A DNA stretch of 23,397 nt from Thermotogota bacterium (lineage in GTDB: Bacteria > Thermotogota > Thermotogae > Petrotogales > Petrotogaceae). This document shows, one piece after another, positions 14,550 to 22,998 of this stretch; positions within the stretch are counted from its first letter, which is position 1; the number at the start of each line of letters is the position of its first letter. Both the position numbers and the translations under genes were made by a program. Under the pieces are notes generated by a model, which worked only from the letters and a program-made list of their open reading frames with translations, did no database searches and had not been told where the DNA came from. Location of the stretch: contig JBNJGY010000002.1 in NCBI GenBank assembly GCA_051748045.1, positions 1 to 23,397 on the forward strand, read 5' to 3'.

Positions 14550-15266
14550 ATGATTACTAAATCTTTTATAGAAGGCGCAAATGTATTATATGGTGAAAAA
14601 AAGAAAATATTAAAATTTTTGGAAGAAAAATATAATTTAGGTGAGAAAACATGGATAATTACTTTGAACACATTAATGTATATGGAGTTTTTTAAAAGCG
14701 AAATATATAAAAAATCTTTTCTAAAAGCAGATTTATTAATTCCTGATGGAATTGGTATTGTTAAATATATGAATAAAAAGAATTATTCTACAGAAAGATG
14801 TCCGGGTATTGAAACAATGAAATATTTTTGTGAGATTTCTGGTGAAGATGATAAAGGTGTTTTTTTACTTGGGGCTAAAGAAGAAGTTTTGAAAAAAGCA
14901 AAAGCAAACCTAGAAGAAACATATAATTCAAAAATAAATGGATATATTAATGGTTTTTTTTCAAAAGAAGAAGACGAAAAAATTGTGAATATAATAAATG
15001 AATCTAACTCAGATTTTCTTTTTGTAGGTATGGGTATACCGAGACAGGAAGAATTCATTTTAAGAAATTATGATAAATTAAATGTAAAGGTGATGATGGG
15101 CGTTGGTGGGAGCATAGATGTTTTTGCTGGAGAAGTAAAAAGGGCTCCAGTTTTATTTCAAAAATTAGGTATTGAATGGTTTTATAGAATGATGGTAGAG
15201 CCTAAAAGGTTTAATAAATTTCCAGACTTAATAAAATTTTATTTAAAATATTATTTAAAAAGATAA
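14550..15266 (+). CDS. WecB/TagA/CpsF family glycosyltransferase (GT26)
   Basis: DLLIPDGIG, ERCPGIE, FLLGAK, FVGMGIPRQE, GVGGSIDV and RAP..FQKLGIEWFYR motifs. Confidence 0.93.
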   Translation: MITKSFIEGANVLYGEKKKILKFLEEKYNLGEKTWIITLNTLMYMEFFKSEIYKKSFLKADLLIPDGIGIVKYMNKKNYSTERCPGIETMKYFCEISGEDDKGVFLLGAKEEVLKKAKANLEETYNSKINGYINGFFSKEEDEKIVNIINESNSDFLFVGMGIPRQEEFILRNYDKLNVKVMMGVGGSIDVFAGEVKRAPVLFQKLGIEWFYRMMVEPKRFNKFPDLIKFYLKYYLKR

Positions 15267-15281
15267 ATTGGAGGTGTAATA

Positions 15282-16574
15282 ATGATTTTAAAAAATTGTA
15301 CTTTACTAACTGGAGCCATTGGTGAAGTAATAGAAAATGGAGCAGTTTATGTACAAGATGGAAAAGTTATTGATGTTGGATCAGCAGAAAAAATATTAGA
15401 GAAATATGGAGTTGAAGAGAAAAATATAAGAGATTTAAACAAAAAAATTTTATTACCGGGTCTAACAAATCCATATACAAGCTTTTATATTAATGAACTA
15501 TATTTAAATAGTAAATTAAGAGATTCAAATTTACCTCCTTATGAAAAATTTTCAAAGATCGTTAATTTTGCGCTTAATAAAGCAGAAGACACAGAATTCT
15601 TTAAAGACATAATGACTTTAGGTAGTTTCAAATCTCTAATTAATGGTATTACTTCTACTATAGTATCTTTTCCTTATAGCAAAAACATAGATATAGTAAA
15701 GAAAATAGCTGATGATATAGGTGTAAGAGTCAAACCATCACCAATATTATTAACTGAAAATGGGATTCCTAGAAATATAAGAGAAGATTTAATAGAAAAC
15801 AAGGATATAAAATCTATAACTATATTAGGTGTTTGGGGCTTAGAAAAAGAAGATTATGATTTTCTTGAAAAATTCTTATCAGATGGAAGAAGATTGAGAA
15901 TTGTTATAGTAGATTTTCAACAAGAAGAAAGATATGCTATGCTCAAACATGGAAAAGAATTGATGACAATTTTAAAAGAATTTTCTCTATTATCCAAAAA
16001 AGTTGACGTGATTTTTGCTGGTAATGTAAATCCTCAAGTGATGGATTATTTTGCTTCAAAAGGAGTAAGGTTAATAAAAAGTGTTAGGACTGAATTAATG
16101 GAAATAAATACATCTCCGAATTTATTAGACATGTTGGGGAGAGGAATGAAAGTTGCTATTGGAACTGGATTAATAGATTATTCTCTTTTTAATGAAGCTA
16201 AAACTTTATTGATTACAGAAAAATTTAATAATAAAGCTAAGCATAATATATTATATAATGAAGTAGAAAGAACTATATTCATGAACAACTATCAATTCAC
16301 TTCAGATGAATTTGATCTTCAGTTAGGTAAAATAAGTCCTGGTAAAGAGGCAGATTTTACAATTTTAAGTTCTAGAACAGGAGATTATATTTTCAATACA
16401 AATACTCCATTCACTGAAATATCCTTTAGAATGGGAAATGAGATAGAAGTTTCAGGAGCAGTTGTGGGAGGAGAAATAACTCTTTGGGATAGAGAACCTA
16501 CAAAAGCAGATACTAAAGAAATAAGAAAAATTCAGAAAAAAATTAATGATTATGTAAAAAAATTGAAAATATAA
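15282..16574 (+). CDS. Amidohydrolase-superfamily protein (SsnA / MTA-SAH deaminase-like), catalytic metal ligands degenerate
   Basis: N-terminal beta-sandwich (IENGAVYVQDGKVIDVG...KILLPGL), LINGITS, GMKVAIGT and GKISPGKEADF. The HxH position reads YTS and the GTD position reads GTG. Confidence 0.85.
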   Translation: MILKNCTLLTGAIGEVIENGAVYVQDGKVIDVGSAEKILEKYGVEEKNIRDLNKKILLPGLTNPYTSFYINELYLNSKLRDSNLPPYEKFSKIVNFALNKAEDTEFFKDIMTLGSFKSLINGITSTIVSFPYSKNIDIVKKIADDIGVRVKPSPILLTENGIPRNIREDLIENKDIKSITILGVWGLEKEDYDFLEKFLSDGRRLRIVIVDFQQEERYAMLKHGKELMTILKEFSLLSKKVDVIFAGNVNPQVMDYFASKGVRLIKSVRTELMEINTSPNLLDMLGRGMKVAIGTGLIDYSLFNEAKTLLITEKFNNKAKHNILYNEVERTIFMNNYQFTSDEFDLQLGKISPGKEADFTILSSRTGDYIFNTNTPFTEISFRMGNEIEVSGAVVGGEITLWDREPTKADTKEIRKIQKKINDYVKKLKI

Positions 16575-16610
16575 TAAAAATGCGAGCTAAGCTCGCATTT
16601 TTATTATATT
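16568..16610. terminator. Bidirectional terminator / perfect 21-bp inverted repeat
   Basis: AATATAATAAAAATGCGAGCT-A-AGCTCGCATTTTTATTATATT spans both convergent stop codons. Confidence 0.9.
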
Positions 16611-17554
16611 AATTGAATGCTTAATCTACTCATTTCTGACGATATATTAAGGTAACAAGTGTATTCTGCTTCAGAGAAGTTTGCTGAAATAAATGAACCA
16701 TCTTCTCTTTCTATTAACCCTTCAAAAGTTCTTAAATTTAATTCTCCCAATTGGTTAAGAACCAAACCTACATTTTCAGAGAGCTTAACTGTTATTGTAG
16801 AAATTTCTAAATCAGCATCAATAGATGAATCTTTTTTATTAGAAGGTATCAAAACTATTTTAGATGCTGTAGAATTGATATTGATGTTTTCAGGATAAGA
16901 ATTTCTTAAGTCAAAAAAAACATCAGAAACGCTTAAGTTAGTAGATAAATTGTACTTTAAATTAGTCCTTATTCCAGTGTTCATTTTTGACCTTTCAGGA
17001 ACTTTAATATTTGATACTTTTAATTTATTTTCTATGTTTAACTCTGAATCATTCCAATTGAAAGATCTTTTGAATATATCAGCATCAGCATAAGAGTCTA
17101 CTTGAATATTATAATCTTCAGTTGTTCTAGAAGAAAAATTCAACTTAGTCCAATCTAAAAAATATTTAATATCATATCTATTCAAATTTTTGGGAACTTC
17201 TATTTTCATATGTTTATCTTCAATTCTGTTATTTTTTACATTGATAAATTTACTAGATGTAAAAACAGAATATATTCCCCAACCTACTAAATAAGAAGCG
17301 ATCATTAACAATATAATTTGCCAAAAACCAAGATTTTCTGCAAAAACGTCAAAAGCATCCATTATCAAAATAGAACCAAAAATCAGGCTTCCGATTTTAT
17401 CACTCTTTGGATGTTTAAAAACTTTGAAACCATCAGCTAAAAAAACTATACCAAAGAAAATTTCTACAGCTATAGAGAAACTGATTGTAATTTCAAATAC
17501 AATTCCTAAAAGAATTATTAAACCTATTAATATTGATACAAAAGCTCCAGTCAA
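16604..17554 (-). CDS. Membrane protein: LiaF-like 4-TM N-domain plus C-terminal toast-rack-like beta-solenoid
   Basis: Four hydrophobic segments in the first ~100 aa, then beta-rich repeats ending ENVGLVL..EGL..DGSFISANF.EA. TTG start with RBS GGAGG and a 4-nt overlap with the upstream gene. Family assignment is from pattern only. Confidence 0.72.
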   Translation of the reverse strand: MTGAFVSILIGLIILLGIVFEITISFSIAVEIFFGIVFLADGFKVFKHPKSDKIGSLIFGSILIMDAFDVFAENLGFWQIILLMIASYLVGWGIYSVFTSSKFINVKNNRIEDKHMKIEVPKNLNRYDIKYFLDWTKLNFSSRTTEDYNIQVDSYADADIFKRSFNWNDSELNIENKLKVSNIKVPERSKMNTGIRTNLKYNLSTNLSVSDVFFDLRNSYPENININSTASKIVLIPSNKKDSSIDADLEISTITVKLSENVGLVLNQLGELNLRTFEGLIEREDGSFISANFSEAEYTCYLNISSEMSRLSIQLI

Positions 17555-18063
17555 TTTTTTCTCCTCCCATTTGGTACAAAAGAACTAATTCCAGATGCGA
17601 GTAAAAAAGCTCCTATTAAAACTAATAAGATTTCCCAAAAATTAAAATTCAATCCAAATAAAGTTAGCGAATCTATTAATAAAATAATACCTGCTGTTAA
17701 ACCGAAAATAGTTCTTTTAATTATTTTTTTTAAAATTTTTCTTTTAGTGAAAGTACTTCTTGCAAAACGAAATGAACCTTTAGCAATTTTTCTAGCAAAT
17801 TCTGGCATATCCTTTTCTTCTTCTATTTCTTCTTCTGCTTGATTTATTTGCTCGTTAGCATAATGTATATCATCTTGATTTAAACTATCAAAACTTTTTC
17901 CATTTATGTTTATAGATGGTTTGATCAAGCCTAAACCACTTGAAATAAGTACGATTGAGAAAATTAATTCTACAATTCTCCAAAAACCCATAGAGAAATC
18001 ATAAAAAACACTTAGGAACAACAAAACACCTGCTACAATCATAATCACAGCGATTTTTCTCAT
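17551..18063 (-). CDS. 4-TM membrane protein (LiaF/LiaI-like) with a long charged loop
   Basis: Two TM hairpins, each with an FW motif, separated by a ~70-aa acidic-then-basic loop. ATGA overlap with the upstream gene. Confidence 0.75.
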   Translation of the reverse strand: MRKIAVIMIVAGVLLFLSVFYDFSMGFWRIVELIFSIVLISSGLGLIKPSININGKSFDSLNQDDIHYANEQINQAEEEIEEEKDMPEFARKIAKGSFRFARSTFTKRKILKKIIKRTIFGLTAGIILLIDSLTLFGLNFNFWEILLVLIGAFLLASGISSFVPNGRRKN

Positions 18064-19049
18064 CTTGAAATCCCCCTATCATTAAGAAATTTCTCTGCTT
18101 GTTGATTATCATATCCCATTTCTGATAATAATTCTAGTGCAAAATCATATGAAATCTTTTTTTGTTTTAATAAATCTAAAATTTTTTTCTCTTCTTGGGT
18201 TAAAAAATCTTCAGAATTCATTTTTTGATTTGGTTGATTTGTTTTTTCTTCATTTATACTTTGAGAACTATATTGATCTTGCTCAATCCCTTTTATTTTA
18301 ACATTTCCGGTAATAGCCTTAACTGATATCTTTCTGGTTTCTTTTAACATATCCACATCATCTTTTTCTATCAAATCTATATTTGATTTTAAAGTCGCAG
18401 AATATGGAGTCAATTTTTTTGTAATATATATAGGTTCTTTACCACAAATAGATAAACTAGCATCTCCAGTTATTATTTTAAGTTTTATCAAATCAAAATT
18501 TGAATTTAAACTATCTATTTTAACGTTACCAGTTATTAGATGGCAATCAATATTTTGAATTTTTGAATCCTTATATCTTATATTTCCTGTAGTTACAGAT
18601 ATTTCTTCGTTAATTAAATCTGAATTATCTGCATGAAAATTTCCAGTTATTAATTTTGTTTTATTATTTTTTATTTTACAATTTTTGATATTAGTATTTC
18701 CAGTAATGATTTTATTGTCTAAAAAATTAAGTTCGATATTCTCCAAGTAAATATCACCTTGAGTAAAGTTAATTTTCAATTCTTCAAATTCTTCGGAGAC
18801 ATATAAAGTAGCATGAAAAGTATCATTTGACATAAAACCAAAAAATTTGTTTAAGAATGAATCGTTATCCCTTGTAAATTTGATGAAATAACTATCTTCA
18901 CCTTCTTTTTCTAGAAAAAGATCACTATCTATATCTTCCTCTAGCTCAAAATAAGTTTTATTTGATTTCAAAACTTTTAATTTAATTTCATCAAATTTAG
19001 AATTAATGCTGACTCTTTTAAAGTGTTCTAAGTTAATAGTTCTAGACAT
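18060..19049 (-). CDS. DUF4097-like beta-strand repeat protein with C-terminal SHOCT-like bihelical motif
   Basis: Seven (I/T)TG(N/D)-type repeats; C-terminal EEKKILDLLKQKKISYDFALELL; RBS AGGGGA. Confidence 0.8.
   Translation of the reverse strand: MSRTINLEHFKRVSINSKFDEIKLKVLKSNKTYFELEEDIDSDLFLEKEGEDSYFIKFTRDNDSFLNKFFGFMSNDTFHATLYVSEEFEELKINFTQGDIYLENIELNFLDNKIITGNTNIKNCKIKNNKTKLITGNFHADNSDLINEEISVTTGNIRYKDSKIQNIDCHLITGNVKIDSLNSNFDLIKLKIITGDASLSICGKEPIYITKKLTPYSATLKSNIDLIEKDDVDMLKETRKISVKAITGNVKIKGIEQDQYSSQSINEEKTNQPNQKMNSEDFLTQEEKKILDLLKQKKISYDFALELLSEMGYDNQQAEKFLNDRGISR
18296..18775 (-). repeat. Coding beta-solenoid repeats, 19-aa (57-nt) period
   Basis: xG(N/D) motif codon blocks at + coordinates 18753, 18696, 18639, 18582, 18525 and 18462 (spacing 57,57,57,57,63 nt), with a seventh at 18303. 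Confidence 0.85.
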
Positions 19050-19062
19050 ATTAAATCCCCCT

Positions 19063-19425
19063 TTATTCTAAGTTTAAAAAAACAGTTTGGCCATCTTCAG
19101 TGTTTATTTCAATTTCTTGATTTGAATTGGAATTGATTAAATTATCAATAGCTTCATTAATGTCATTTAATTCATCTTTATCTAAATCAGAATTTTTCAA
19201 GCTTTTTCTAATAATTCCTTTTGATATCTTTAAAACAGAGAGAGGTATTTTCATGTTTACTATTTTTTTGTTATTTTTCTCTATTATGACTCTCAAATAT
19301 TTTTTATTTTTATTTTTTACTTCCTCTTTTTCAGAATATAAAGTCTCTATAAAATCTGCGGCATCATATATGTTTATCGTCTCATCTTTATACATTTTTA
19401 AAATTTTAATCAAGTCTTCTCTCAT
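19063..19425 (-). CDS. Small protein with N-terminal SHOCT-like (YvlB/LiaX N-terminal-like) motif
   Basis: REDLIKILKMYKDETINIYDAADFIETL, then KYLRVIIE..KIVNMKIPLSVL; RBS GAGGTG. Confidence 0.78.
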   Translation of the reverse strand: MREDLIKILKMYKDETINIYDAADFIETLYSEKEEVKNKNKKYLRVIIEKNNKKIVNMKIPLSVLKISKGIIRKSLKNSDLDKDELNDINEAIDNLINSNSNQEIEINTEDGQTVFLNLE

Positions 19426-19436
19426 AATTTCACCTC

Positions 19437-19811
19437 TTATGAATTTCTATATTTCTTTAAAATTCCTTTTGCTTCTTCAGGTGTGATCTCACCTTTTTCA
19501 ATTTTTTCTAAAATTTCCATTGTTTTCTTTCTATTATCTTCTTCAGATTCATAACCTAAAGCTTTAACTAATTCTTCTAATCTAGCTTTTGCGGTAGGAT
19601 AGGATACTCCTAATTCTTTTTGTAGTTCAGATAGATTCCCTCTGTTTTTTATGAAAATTTTCAAAAATATCAACTGTTCATCTGTTAATTGAGCAAATTC
19701 TTCGATTTGGAAACTTCCAGTTATTTCAGTTGAACATTTTTCACATTTATATTTTTGAATTTTAAGTTGTCCACCACAAATAGGGCAAGTAGTCAATCTT
19801 CTTTTAAACAT
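19437..19811 (-). CDS. DUF2089-family protein (zinc ribbon + HTH + SHOCT-like tail), putative transcription regulator
   Basis: CPICGG..CEKC zinc ribbon, RGNLSELQKELGVSYPTAKARL HTH and ILEKIEKGEITPEEA tail. RBS GGAGG at 19820-19824 places the start at 19811. Confidence 0.88.
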   Translation of the reverse strand: MFKRRLTTCPICGGQLKIQKYKCEKCSTEITGSFQIEEFAQLTDEQLIFLKIFIKNRGNLSELQKELGVSYPTAKARLEELVKALGYESEEDNRKKTMEILEKIEKGEITPEEAKGILKKYRNS

Positions 19812-19887
19812 AATTTGATCCTCCTTTTTTTGAATAATAAATTTAAAAATTCTAATTATTATGATAAAAAAATTAAATAACAAATAA

Positions 19888-19916
19888 ATTATACAATAAA
19901 AAATCAATAATGTCAA
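19888..19916 (-). promoter_or_regulatory. Consensus sigma70 promoter for the DUF2089 operon
   Basis: On the minus strand: TTGACA (19916-19911), a 17-nt spacer, then TATAAT (19893-19888). Confidence 0.85.
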
Positions 19917-20066
19917 TATAAAAATGAAATAATTATAAATATTATTCAAATAAAACTAAATAATATTTATATTATAATAAAATATATTAATGTTAATTAT
20001 TTCTCTTATATTTTTAAAAGAGGGGAAATAATAAAATAGTATCATTACAGAGGAGGAGGATTTTTA

Positions 20067-21347
20067 ATGAAAAAATTTGTTAATAAATTAGATAATAAAA
20101 TAATATATGAAATTTTTCCGAGAAATTATTCAAAATCTGGAACTTTTAATGAAATTTATTATGATTTAGAAAGAATTAAAAAATTAGGTACCGATATAAT
20201 TTGGTTTATGCCTTTCTATCCTATAGGTGAAAAAAATAGGAAAGGTACATATGGTTCACCATATTCAATAAAAAAATATGATATTATATCAAATGAGTTT
20301 GGGAATATTGATCAATTTAAAAAAATAATAAGAAAAGCTAATGATTTAGATTTGAAGGTTATGATAGATATTGTTTTTAATCATACTTCTAATGACTCTT
20401 TTTTATCTAAGAATCATAAAGAATGGTTTAGATTAAATAAAAAGGGTGATTTTGAAAGAAAAGAGCAAGATTGGTTTGATATTATTGATTTAGATTTTGA
20501 AAAAAAGGACCTCTGGGATTATTTGATAGGTATATTAAAATATTGGAGAGATATAGGAGTTTCTGGGTTTAGGTGTGATGTAGCTTCTATGATTCCAATT
20601 GATTTTTGGGAGAAAGCTAGAAATGAAGTAGACCCTCAAGGAGAGATGATTTGGCTTGCAGAGAGTTTAGAACCAAAGTATATTATTGCTTTGAGAAGAA
20701 AAGGGTATAATATTCTTTCTGACAGTGAATTATATAAAGTTTTTGATTTAACATACGATTATGATGGATATCAGCATATAGATGAGTATTTTAAAGGCGA
20801 AAAAGAAATAGAATGTTTAATAGACTACATTAAGATTCAACAAGCTATTTACCCTTGTAATGCTATGAAAATGAGGTTTTTAGAAAATCATGATAAGCCC
20901 AGAATAGCAAGTATAATTTTTTCAAAAGAAAAATTAAAAAATTGGACAACTTTTTATATGTTATTACCAGGTGTTCCGCTAATATATGCTGGACAAGAAA
21001 TTAAAACAGAAGTTTATCCTGATTTATTTGAAAAAAGTTCTATAAACTGGGATAATGGAGATTATGAGTTCTTAAACTTTATTAAAAGAATAATAATGAT
21101 ATCTAAAGAGATAAAAACAGAAGCTAATACTTTTAAAATTAATCAAATTAAAAATGGAATTATAGAAATTATATGGGAAAGTAATAGTATAAAATATTAT
21201 ATTTATATAAATCTTGAAGAAAAATATGGTGATATAAATTTAAGCAAATCTTATAGTGGATTTGATATGATTAAGGGTGAGAACATAAAAATTCAAGAAA
21301 ATTTGAAAATTGGAAAAGAACCAATTATCATTAAGTCTATAAAATAG
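20067..21347 (+). CDS. Cytoplasmic alpha-amylase-family glycoside hydrolase (GH13)
   Basis: IYEIFPRNY, DIVFNHT and catalytic GFRCDVA / WLAES / FLENHD motifs; no signal peptide; RBS GGAGGAGG. Confidence 0.93.
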   Translation: MKKFVNKLDNKIIYEIFPRNYSKSGTFNEIYYDLERIKKLGTDIIWFMPFYPIGEKNRKGTYGSPYSIKKYDIISNEFGNIDQFKKIIRKANDLDLKVMIDIVFNHTSNDSFLSKNHKEWFRLNKKGDFERKEQDWFDIIDLDFEKKDLWDYLIGILKYWRDIGVSGFRCDVASMIPIDFWEKARNEVDPQGEMIWLAESLEPKYIIALRRKGYNILSDSELYKVFDLTYDYDGYQHIDEYFKGEKEIECLIDYIKIQQAIYPCNAMKMRFLENHDKPRIASIIFSKEKLKNWTTFYMLLPGVPLIYAGQEIKTEVYPDLFEKSSINWDNGDYEFLNFIKRIIMISKEIKTEANTFKINQIKNGIIEIIWESNSIKYYIYINLEEKYGDINLSKSYSGFDMIKGENIKIQENLKIGKEPIIIKSIK

Positions 21348-21387
21348 CATATAGACTATAATATAGTTTTATTTTTCAATCAAAAAA

Positions 21388-21396
21388 TGTTATAAT
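21388..21396 (+). promoter_or_regulatory. Extended -10 promoter element for ftsY
   Basis: Exact TGTTATAAT upstream of RBS GGAGGTG. Confidence 0.6.
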
Positions 21397-21431
21397 TTTC
21401 TAAGTGTAAACATAAAACTTGGAGGTGCATA

Positions 21432-22340
21432 ATGGGGCTTTTTGATAAATTGAAAAAAGGATTGAGTAAAACCAGAGAATCATTCTTTGGAGGAATAAAA
21501 ACCCTATTCACTGGGAAAAAATTAGATGATGAACTACTTGAAGAATTAGAAGAAATTTTGGTTATGTCTGATATGGGTATGGAAACTGTAGAAAAAATTT
21601 TAGACGATTTAAAAAGAGAATATAAAAAGAATGAACCGGAGGATGCGCTAATATTATTAAGAGATATAATGATTAGTAATCTTGAAGCAGAAGGATTTAA
21701 TGCAAATCCGGATAAAAAGCCTTATGTAGTTTTTGTTGTAGGTGTAAATGGTAGCGGAAAAACAACAACTATTGCTAAACTTTCTAAAAAATATATAAGT
21801 GAAGGTAAAAAAGTAGTTATAGCTGCTGCTGATACTTTTAGAGCAGCAGCTATAGAACAAATTAAACATTGGGGAGAAAAAACTGGTGCCACTGTTATTG
21901 CACATGAACATGGATCTGACGCAGCAGCTGTGGTTTTTGATACATTACTACATGCAAAGTCAAAAGATAAAGATGTAGTTATAATTGATACAGCTGGAAG
22001 ACTTCACAATAAAAGCCACCTTATGGAAGAATTAAAAAAAATCAAAAGAGTAATACAGAAAGAAACAGATGGTCCTCATGAAACACTATTAGTTTTAGAT
22101 GGTACAACAGGACAAAATGGTATACAACAAGCCAAGGCATTTAAAGAAGCTGTAGATATTAGCGGAGTAGTTGTAACAAAACTTGATGGAACCGCTAAAG
22201 GTGGTATCGCATTTTCTATAAATAATCAATTAAACATACCAATTAAAATGATCGGTGTGGGAGAAAAAGAAGACGACCTACAAATGTTCGAACCAAAATT
22301 ATATGTAAATGCACTTCTTGGAGTTGAAGATGATGGCTGA
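21432..22340 (+). CDS. ftsY: Signal recognition particle receptor FtsY (NG domain only)
   Basis: MGLFDKLKKGLSKTR, GVNGSGKTTT, DTFRAAA, DTAGRL, DGTTGQN and TKLDGTAKGG. Confidence 0.97.
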   Translation: MGLFDKLKKGLSKTRESFFGGIKTLFTGKKLDDELLEELEEILVMSDMGMETVEKILDDLKREYKKNEPEDALILLRDIMISNLEAEGFNANPDKKPYVVFVVGVNGSGKTTTIAKLSKKYISEGKKVVIAAADTFRAAAIEQIKHWGEKTGATVIAHEHGSDAAAVVFDTLLHAKSKDKDVVIIDTAGRLHNKSHLMEELKKIKRVIQKETDGPHETLLVLDGTTGQNGIQQAKAFKEAVDISGVVVTKLDGTAKGGIAFSINNQLNIPIKMIGVGEKEDDLQMFEPKLYVNALLGVEDDG

Positions 22341-22998
22341 TTATTGGAAAGATACCGCGAAATGTCCAATATGTGGTAATGAATTTATGTATTCTAAGGT
22401 CTCAAGTTCTGTGATTAAAGTTAGAGAGAGGGACTTAGATTTAAAGCCTGTTTATAAAGATATTAATCCATTAAAATTTTCTTTGATAACTTGTCCAAAC
22501 TGTTATTTTACTTTTAACGAAAAAGATTCTGAAGAAATTCAAAAACAGATAAAAGAACAACATTTTTCTGCAATAAAAGACTTTTTAAATTCTTTATCTG
22601 AAAAGGACATGAAGGGTTTGGACAACTATGAAACAAAAAAATTAGAATTTTATAAAAAACAGTTGGTAATAGCTTCTGAAATATACTCCATACTTGAAAA
22701 ACCTTTTGAAGTTTCAAGATTATTATTAAAACTTTCTTGGGTTTACAGAGAAGAAAATGACGAAAAAAGAGAATTAAAAATATTAAATAATATTTTAAAA
22801 ATAAATGAAAAATACTACGAATCAGCAAATAACGATAGAGATACTATTTTTCTTTTATTTTATAATTCTTACATAAACTTTAGGCTAGGAAGAAGAAAAG
22901 AAGCTGCAAAAAATATTGAGAGGCTTATGAGGAGTTATGGAAAAACTAAATCTCCTTATATTAATGCTGCAAAAGAATTACGGGGTGAAATTGAATGA
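22330..22998 (+). CDS. DUF2225-like protein (zinc-binding N-terminus, helical TPR-like C-terminus)
   Basis: CPICGNEF, RDLDLKP.Y.DINP, TCPNCYF and LKLSWVYRE. Start is ATG 22330 or 22333 after GGAG, overlapping the end of ftsY. Confidence 0.8.
   Translation: MMADYWKDTAKCPICGNEFMYSKVSSSVIKVRERDLDLKPVYKDINPLKFSLITCPNCYFTFNEKDSEEIQKQIKEQHFSAIKDFLNSLSEKDMKGLDNYETKKLEFYKKQLVIASEIYSILEKPFEVSRLLLKLSWVYREENDEKRELKILNNILKINEKYYESANNDRDTIFLLFYNSYINFRLGRRKEAAKNIERLMRSYGKTKSPYINAAKELRGEIE

Follow-up and report, generated by a model that had tools for sequence, protein, structure and literature searches.

The minus strand of a 23,397-nucleotide (nt) stretch of a Thermotogota genome of the family Petrotogaceae (GenBank assembly GCA_051748045.1, contig JBNJGY010000002.1, positions 1 to 23,397; the whole stretch is called the window below) carries a five-gene operon beginning with a gene for a DUF2089 protein. 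On a slight balance of probability, it is a PspA-free DUF2089/Toastrack envelope module in its Thermotogota form, with an autorepressor that would be relieved by a membrane-linked signal. The conserved unit is not the five-gene form itself; it is DUF2089 together with a SHOCT-like or beta-solenoid partner. What is new here is that DUF2089 is near-universal in a phylum nearly devoid of PspA, and that a candidate operator can be located at the promoter.

The operon is real, with one promoter, five packed genes and one terminator, and its co-transcription is predicted. These elements had all been named in the initial annotation, and each was recovered on re-examination. The promoter is the sole site agreeing with the sigma-70 consensus at 12 of 12 positions among the 46 promoter-like sites found in the 6.5-kb region 15000-21500, the remaining 45 being at chance level (shuffle mean 44.9). 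The whole genome has 25 perfect sites of this kind in front of a ribosome-binding site, so the operon promoter is a strong, but not a unique one. The open reading frames (ORFs) are separated by gaps of 11 and 13 nt and then overlap twice by 4 nt each, and a terminator hairpin of 20 pairs (z -8.0, 0 of 200 shuffles as good) separates gene 5 from the convergent amidohydrolase gene. The start of gene 1 was taken as the ATG behind AGGAGG; a TTG-started ORF of 170 amino acids (aa) was rejected because it would contain the promoter. Five metatranscriptome runs contained just 0.07-0.16 of the sampled words and gave no evidence on co-transcription. The components of the operon are as follows (TM, transmembrane; HTH, helix-turn-helix).

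19888 to 19916, minus strand: sigma-70 promoter, consensus TTGACA-17-TATAAT (from the sequence)
19820 to 19825, minus strand: ribosome-binding site AGGAGG (from the sequence)
19437 to 19811, minus strand: gene 1, DUF2089 regulator, 124 aa, with a Zn ribbon (C9, C12, C23, C26), an HTH (GN..SYPT) and a C-terminal SHOCT-like hairpin (Pfam, alignment)
19063 to 19425, minus strand: gene 2, 120 aa, with a diverged N-terminal SHOCT-like hairpin and a small beta-beta-alpha-alpha-beta-beta domain ("SHOCT-like+X"), dispensable (homologues, model)
18060 to 19049, minus strand: gene 3, 329 aa, soluble Toastrack (DUF4097) beta-solenoid with a C-terminal SHOCT-like hairpin (aa 284-312; Pfam, homologues)
17551 to 18063, minus strand: gene 4, 170 aa, LiaI-LiaF-type 4-TM protein with a charged insert of ca. 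65 aa between TM2 and TM3, predicted to lie inside (hydrophobicity, homologues)
16604 to 17554, minus strand: gene 5, 316 aa, LiaF-like architecture, 4-TM with a predicted cytoplasmic Toastrack of the 4QRK type (model, Foldseek, positive-inside rule)
16568 to 16610, no strand assigned: intrinsic terminator hairpin, probably bidirectional, common to the operon and the convergent amidohydrolase gene (hairpin scan)

The gene 1 product matches the Pfam families of the DUF2089 HTH (E-value 2e-22), the Zn ribbon (3e-13) and the SHOCT-like domain (2.5e-6), all at or above the cut-off. C9, C12, C23, G58, N59 and Y71 are invariant across 55 aligned homologues, the recognition helix being conserved in all of them (Y71 55/55, G58-N59 55/55). 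Gene 2 itself has no Pfam match, the SHOCT-like family being matched by 18 of its 22 aligned homologues. Its predicted structure consists of a two-helix hairpin and a small alpha/beta domain, for which a fold search gave no clear match (best Z 6.5, root-mean-square deviation 3.2, 79 aligned, below trust level); weak matches to Not3 and GAS were set aside as coiled-coil noise. The gene 2 profile matches the gene located after DUF2089 in two Bacillota plasmid loci (E-values 1e-18 and 4e-17), which identifies gene 2 as the SHOCT-like+X partner. Gene 3 matches DUF4097 above the cut-off (2e-7), as do 42 of its 42 aligned homologues. The SHOCT-like hairpin is thus common to three products, with hhalign values of 89% for genes 2 and 1 and 86% for genes 3 and 1. 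The idea that the hairpins of genes 2 and 3 are mutually exclusive was dropped, weak hairpins being visible in most gene 3 proteins; the hairpin profile behind it had been iterated on the same sequences.

Four hydrophobic segments were seen in each of the products of genes 4 and 5, whose TM regions are homologues of one another (hhalign 99.7%). These regions are likely of the LiaI-LiaF-TM type, in a divergent form: gene 4 matches that Pfam family under the cut-off (1.4e-3), 11 of its 15 homologues match it at E<=0.01 (best 1e-6), and so do 5 of 31 gene 5 homologues. The insert of gene 4 is present in 8 of 15 aligned rows, all of the window's family. The model of gene 5 comprises four helices and a Toastrack fold (predicted local distance difference test score 84.6), and Foldseek aligned it to PDB 4QRK with an E-value of 3.5e-13 and a TM-score of 0.73 by target. 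For the gene 5 family, 12 representatives are counted at E<=1e-30, a number that grows to 2,990 at E<=0.001. According to the positive-inside rule, both termini and the middle loop of the two proteins would lie inside, the outside loops would have at most 10 residues, and the Toastrack would be cytoplasmic. The domain calls made earlier were thus confirmed by profile and structure searches, DUF2089 and DUF4097 scoring above the cut-off and the gene 5 model matching 4QRK.

DUF2089 is found above the cut-off in 126 of 129 Thermotogota genomes and in all 45 of 45 genera, and PspA in 6 of the 129, all of one genus. PspA matches below the cut-off in 15 further genomes were treated as coiled-coil noise, among which a very diverged PspA may exist. 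The phage collection searched contained no DUF2089 relative. The surroundings of DUF2089 were compared in 61 loci, i.e., the window and 60 hand-cut loci chosen to span the families rather than to comprise all matches, with near-duplicates and some loci ending at contig edges among them. Within 3.3 kb of DUF2089, gene 3 is present in 45 loci, gene 2 in 23, gene 5 in 23 and a stand-alone 4-TM gene in 16, and 59 of the 61 have a partner of the gene 2, gene 3 or SHOCT-beta-helix type at that distance. All five genes occur together in four loci, a possible fifth being L040, with gene 5 at the contig edge. The five-gene operon is therefore the full version of a modular locus: of the conservation that was to be surveyed, the pairing of DUF2089 with a partner is kept, and the five-gene set only rarely so.

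Two layouts recur. In type A, DUF2089 is followed by a Toastrack gene with the C-terminal hairpin, and in type B by a gene for a protein with an N-terminal hairpin, which in families f8 and f9 is often a bactofilin-like beta-helix (both of the two long SHOCT-tagged partners scanned). The bactofilin-like partners of f8 and f9 (L083:4372-5451, L085:4982-6010) are often followed by genes for exporters of the major facilitator superfamily (MFS) or the ATP-binding cassette (ABC) type. In loci of f3, f5 and f7 (L064, L066-L071, L077, L079, L082) one or two hydrophobic genes of ca. 70 aa with no Pfam match lie between DUF2089 and the Toastrack gene. The operon is split in genus g9 (L108-L112), with DUF2089-Toastrack located before an M1 peptidase gene and genes 4-5 elsewhere, and a second DUF2089-gene 2 pair is situated behind an unannotated membrane gene. 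Gene 2 is present in 56 of 129 genomes and was not found in G001, a genome of the same genus as the host, in which genes 1 and 3 are separated by 76 nt.

The host genome is 99.65% complete, and its named relatives put it within Thermotogota, close to Petrotoga, Oceanotoga and Marinitoga. The PspA profile matched nothing in it and 0 of 22 in the window's family (the control search matched 9 of 14); the PspC sensor (control 7 of 14) and the zf-HC2 anti-sigma factor (control 3 of 14) are likewise represented by 0 matches in the genome, the latter thus being absent also from the operon. The operon comprises no sigma factor, the extracytoplasmic function (ECF) sigma factor of the window being encoded 15 kb away, and no LiaSR two-component pair. 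The proposal that the operon works without PspA/LiaH or a histidine kinase agrees with these searches, none of its five genes coding for a kinase. Elsewhere in the genome, contig C27 (L128:382-3184) carries in one run a HisKA_3 kinase, a NarL-type regulator and a DUF4097 Toastrack with a hydrophobic N-terminus, which make up a second, kinase-linked Toastrack unit. Two more stand-alone DUF4097 genes are located at L129:3197-4261 and L130:3057-4145, and a third weak match on contig C66.

The promoter region contains three boxes, two of which make up the candidate operator.

19925 to 19937, minus strand: box 1 of the candidate DUF2089 operator (TATAATTATTTCA; family consensus TNAAWWWWTTTNA), found with matrices, its position being also that of a UP element
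19904 to 19916, minus strand: box 2 of the same candidate operator (TTGACATTATTGA), spaced 21 bp from box 1 and lying over the -35 hexamer and the first part of the spacer
19946 to 19958, minus strand: weak upstream box at offset -42 (counted from the -35 start), belonging to the array of 21-bp-phased palindromes

Their significance comes from comparison with other DUF2089 promoters. A sigma-70 promoter with 10-12 of 12 consensus positions lies upstream of 53 of the 62 DUF2089 genes examined (three loci, a duplicate, a mis-started and an out-of-phylum one, were removed from the promoter set), and AT-rich 13-bp palindromic boxes with a 21-bp spacing are situated over it. A dyad scan of 60 upstream regions found CAAA-N3-TTTG in 10, versus 0.8 in shuffles and 1 of 119 control regions, the controls being richer in G+C (0.33 vs 0.25). 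Sites of a palindromic matrix, counted from the -35 start, fall at -18, +3, +24 and +45 in type B (f8/f9), at -12, +8 and +50 in f6, and at -22/-21 in type A, whose register is -21/0; as the matrix was trained on the same regions, the presence of sites is circular, but their spacing is not. Box pairs 20-22 bp apart occur in all nine of nine type-B promoters, in 10-13 of all 60 and in 0 of 119 control upstream regions, and the best-pair score peaks at 21 and 42 bp. When a matrix is made from type B only, its training sites being chosen with a hand-written consensus, its maximum in 40 other promoters falls at offset -20 (mean 0.0 vs -6.8 in 53 controls); a matrix of type-A box 1 alone shows further rises at -42, 0 and +8. 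The DUF2089 clades with the type-B sites and with the other promoters are far apart in the tree; the same type of box in two such distant clades favours DUF2089 as the binder. That the register differs from lineage to lineage, and that the boxes reach over the -10 region, speaks for a repressor site.

The palindromes over the DUF2089 gene's own promoter are clear in the relatives and degenerate in the window. Box 2 has a score of 4.1, reached by 1 of 52 controls, and across 25 promoters its 3' half outside the -35 hexamer differs from controls. The weak upstream box scores -0.7, a value that 2 of 52 control promoters attain, and offset -42 is raised in 25 type-A promoters. With a non-core positional matrix built from 27 promoters of other genera, the window's promoter, at 11.4, outscores all other promoter-like sites of its own genome (161 in all, the runner-up having 6.6), and in genus g9, in which genes 4-5 are relocated, four of the five promoters of these genes score 10.6-12.0, above all 160 other sites, and the fifth 1.4. 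No second promoter stood out in the host genome that would indicate a wider regulon, the next site (6.6) being an unconvincing promoter; the 12 best-ranked sites included none belonging to the other two or three Toastrack genes, and other strong promoters of the genome have no box signal. Seven out-of-phylum loci gave a mixed picture (box-like AT-rich sites in two Bacillota loci and an unclassified one, none or few elsewhere) and were not counted as support. DNA binding by the gene 1 product thus gains indirect support from a conserved operator-like signal.

The proposed course of regulation begins with what is seen in the sequence, the consensus sigma-70 promoter driving five packed genes up to one terminator. 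Quite probably, dimers of the gene 1 product would occupy the 13-bp AT-rich boxes located two helical turns apart, one of them on the -35 hexamer, and repress their own strong promoter; it is the conservation of the DNA that points to repression. It is also rather probable that the products of genes 4 and 5 would form a LiaI/LiaF-like intramembrane complex with short outside loops, responding to membrane damage and presenting a cytoplasmic Toastrack platform. This link with the envelope is suggested by the kinship of the parts. More tentatively, the SHOCT-like hairpins of genes 1-3 might serve as interchangeable docking tags, so that upon a membrane signal the gene 3 Toastrack would capture the repressor by its tag and lift the repression, with gene 2 as an optional tuner of the capture; the sharing of the domain by the three proteins hints at such a step. 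The output would be mainly the operon itself, induction raising the level of the module. It is possible, though doubtful, that Thermotogota use the DUF2089 autorepressor and the 21-bp-phased palindromes as a phylum-wide envelope-stress switch, the SHOCT-like hairpins constituting a kinase-free partner-swap code that leads from membrane-tethered Toastracks to the repressor. If true, PspF/PspA and LiaSR would have a one-component alternative, and a function would be assigned for the first time to DUF2089, SHOCT-like tags and Toastrack docking.

The operon is of a kind that has been predicted computationally, and the relay idea is plausible, not new. Ravi et al. (mSystems 2024, PMC11237479; statements on this and the other papers cited below refer to the portions of their text covered) defined Toastrack and LiaI-LiaF-TM, split DUF2089 into a Zn ribbon, an HTH and a SHOCT-like part, tabulated the pair DUF2089 -> SHOCT-like+X (Table S4, Bacillus megaterium), and proposed on computational grounds a lia-like role for PspA-free DUF2089 contexts with Toastrack and LiaI-LiaF-TM. 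The operon shares with those contexts the architecture of gene 1, the DUF2089 -> SHOCT-like+X order, the Toastrack, LiaI-LiaF-TM and LiaI-LiaF-TM+Toastrack partners and the lack of PspA, so it falls within the DUF2089-Toastrack context of that paper. It falls outside the four-gene core defined there, which includes a sigma factor and a zf-HC2 anti-sigma factor; no linked pair of this kind is present in the operon, and a search of the genome for zf-HC2 gave no match. Neither the main text nor the supplement of PMC11237479 contains the word stem "Thermotog", and no operator is described in the text covered. The view of the initial annotation that the system is undescribed therefore had to be abandoned, the operon type having already been predicted in print.

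Among characterised systems, the liaIHGFSR operon of Bacillus subtilis also comprises a 4-TM LiaI-like gene, a Toastrack gene (the match of the one described here to LiaG is weak, 5e-7, far below the cut-off) and a LiaF-like 4-TM+Toastrack gene. However, the Thermotogota operon has no LiaH/PspA, LiaS or LiaR, a one-component HTH protein and SHOCT-like tags being present instead, and its gene 3 product has no TM anchor. The YvlB/LiaX operons (yvlABCD, lmo2487-2484 and enterococcal liaXYZ) similarly combine a soluble Toastrack and a SHOCT-like hairpin with small membrane proteins, and the Toastrack of the window matches LiaX weakly (3.5e-5). They differ in that the hairpin is C-terminal in the Thermotogota protein, no PspC was found in its genome, and control in those operons is exerted in trans (sigma-W, LiaR), not by a co-encoded DUF2089 protein. 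Antimicrobial peptides are bound by LiaX (PMC6936494), and garvicin KS induces the Listeria Toastrack operon (PMC12791056). In the leaderless-bacteriocin immunity pairs AucIA/AucIB and DdC/DdD, a DUF2089-family gene is likewise followed by a small membrane gene and tied to resistance to membrane-active peptides; orf11 of aureocin A53, part of an immunity pair, is homologous to a DUF2089-family gene (PMC13176088, PMC8538875), and leaderless-bacteriocin immunity has been linked to such a gene, whose precise role is left undefined there (PMC7332713, PMC13176088, PMC8538875). One protein of this kind that was scanned is an HTH only, without a Zn ribbon, no Toastrack was found in its locus, and no bacteriocin gene is evident beside the Thermotogota operon. 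An HTH-only DUF2089 gene of a Lactiplantibacillus plasmid (L107:3212-3803) is divergent from an annotated bacteriocin gene of the aureocin A53 family. DUF2089 genes are also reported in a bacteriocin and an antibiotic cluster (PMC13491596, PMC11007384), and one appears in an iron table with padj 0.087 (PMC10434189).

Several observations weigh against the reading of the operon as a membrane-controlled DUF2089 autorepressor system. A 4-TM gene adjoins DUF2089 in only 30 of the 61 loci and the gene 5 profile has 0 of 15 matches in family f5, so a membrane part of this form is not a necessary component. The notion of a self-contained five-gene relay is therefore too strong, the more so as four loci have all five genes, gene 2 was not found in G001, and a separate HisKA_3/NarL pair stands beside another Toastrack gene in the same genome. 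The HTH of gene 1 has no solved relative by sequence, its profile giving only short Zn-ribbon matches in PDB, and a literature search, with most subscription journals outside its coverage, found no DUF2089 experiment, DNA-binding test or operator. The boxes are AT-rich, and box 1 of the window is degenerate (0.8 bits under the type-B matrix, with 7 of 53 controls as high). Under the positional type-A matrix, promoters of type B, f6 and f7 score no better than background, 4 of the 27 training promoters fall below at least 7 controls in a leave-one-out analysis, and no clear array was seen at the relocated 4-TM or second gene 5 loci outside genus g9 (n=11); the relocated promoter of g9 may be a retained copy of the ancestral one. 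The genomes compared are related and not independent, so significance is overstated. Finally, box 1 corresponds in place and sequence to what we take to be the consensus of the UP-element distal subsite.

That correspondence, the low scores of the window's boxes and the existence in the genome of the HisKA_3/NarL/Toastrack unit and the ECF sigma factor agree with an explanation in which the AT-rich boxes serve RNA polymerase as a UP element and curved DNA, or are bound by some other factor, DUF2089 acting elsewhere or without binding DNA and the operon being controlled in trans, e.g., by the contig C27 pair of the NarL type or the ECF sigma factor encoded at 971-1498. We regard it as improbable, since the boxes change register by lineage, in the series given above, and run across the -10 and start region, unlike a UP element, the genome's other strong promoters do not have the signal, and the promoter is of the housekeeping sigma-70 consensus, not ECF-like. 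The main rival, itself unlikely, holds that the operon encodes an effector (protection) module and not a relay: DUF2089 would autoregulate, using its Zn ribbon to sense metal or redox state or its own hairpin to sense the membrane, and the TM and Toastrack proteins would shield or scaffold the membrane like LiaI, YvlB/Lmo2486 or AucIA/AucIB. The free variation of the partner genes (tiny TM genes, DUF2207, MFS and ABC exporters, M1 peptidase, bactofilin-like helices) and the presence of DUF2089 in bacteriocin immunity clusters fit this well, as does the description of SHOCT-like domains as membrane anchors by Ravi et al. (PMC11237479); moreover, with a regulon seemingly confined to the operon, its products must be the output. 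On the other hand, the SHOCT-tagged or solenoid partner kept beside DUF2089 in 59 of 61 loci suggests physical coupling, and the architecture that gene 5 shares with LiaF is a signalling one in Bacillota (PMC12791056). A housekeeping function unrelated to stress, in cell shape or in the assembly of the envelope or toga, with purely homeostatic autoregulation, would suit the near-universal retention of DUF2089 and the bactofilin-like partners of f8 and f9; it is nevertheless very improbable, as a perfect promoter beneath an array of several boxes points to expression that can be induced over a wide range, and relatives of the parts respond to membrane-active peptides.

Among the neighbours of the operon, the convergent gene at 15282-16574 codes for an SsnA-like amidohydrolase that is possibly diverged or inactive (E-value 2e-25, 89 of 444 bits, far below the family cut-off); an SsnA-like amidohydrolase gene and a WecG/TagA gene adjoin the operon in several members of the window's family. 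A DUF2225 zinc-binding/tetratricopeptide repeat protein is encoded at 22309-22998, its gene overlapping the end of an ftsY-like gene, and at 971-1931 the gene for the ECF-type sigma factor (971-1498) is directly followed by an RseC/MucC gene. No Rfam families or tRNAs were found in the window.

The domains discussed here are widespread, and the literature searched contained no direct test of a DUF2089, SHOCT-like or Toastrack mechanism. The value of the operon lies in its testability: it offers a candidate operator with a fixed 21-bp spacing, two relocated genes that keep the promoter signature, and a regulator that is near-universal in a phylum in which PspA is nearly absent. This pattern hints at a way in which membrane damage may be sensed by cells that have the unusual toga envelope.

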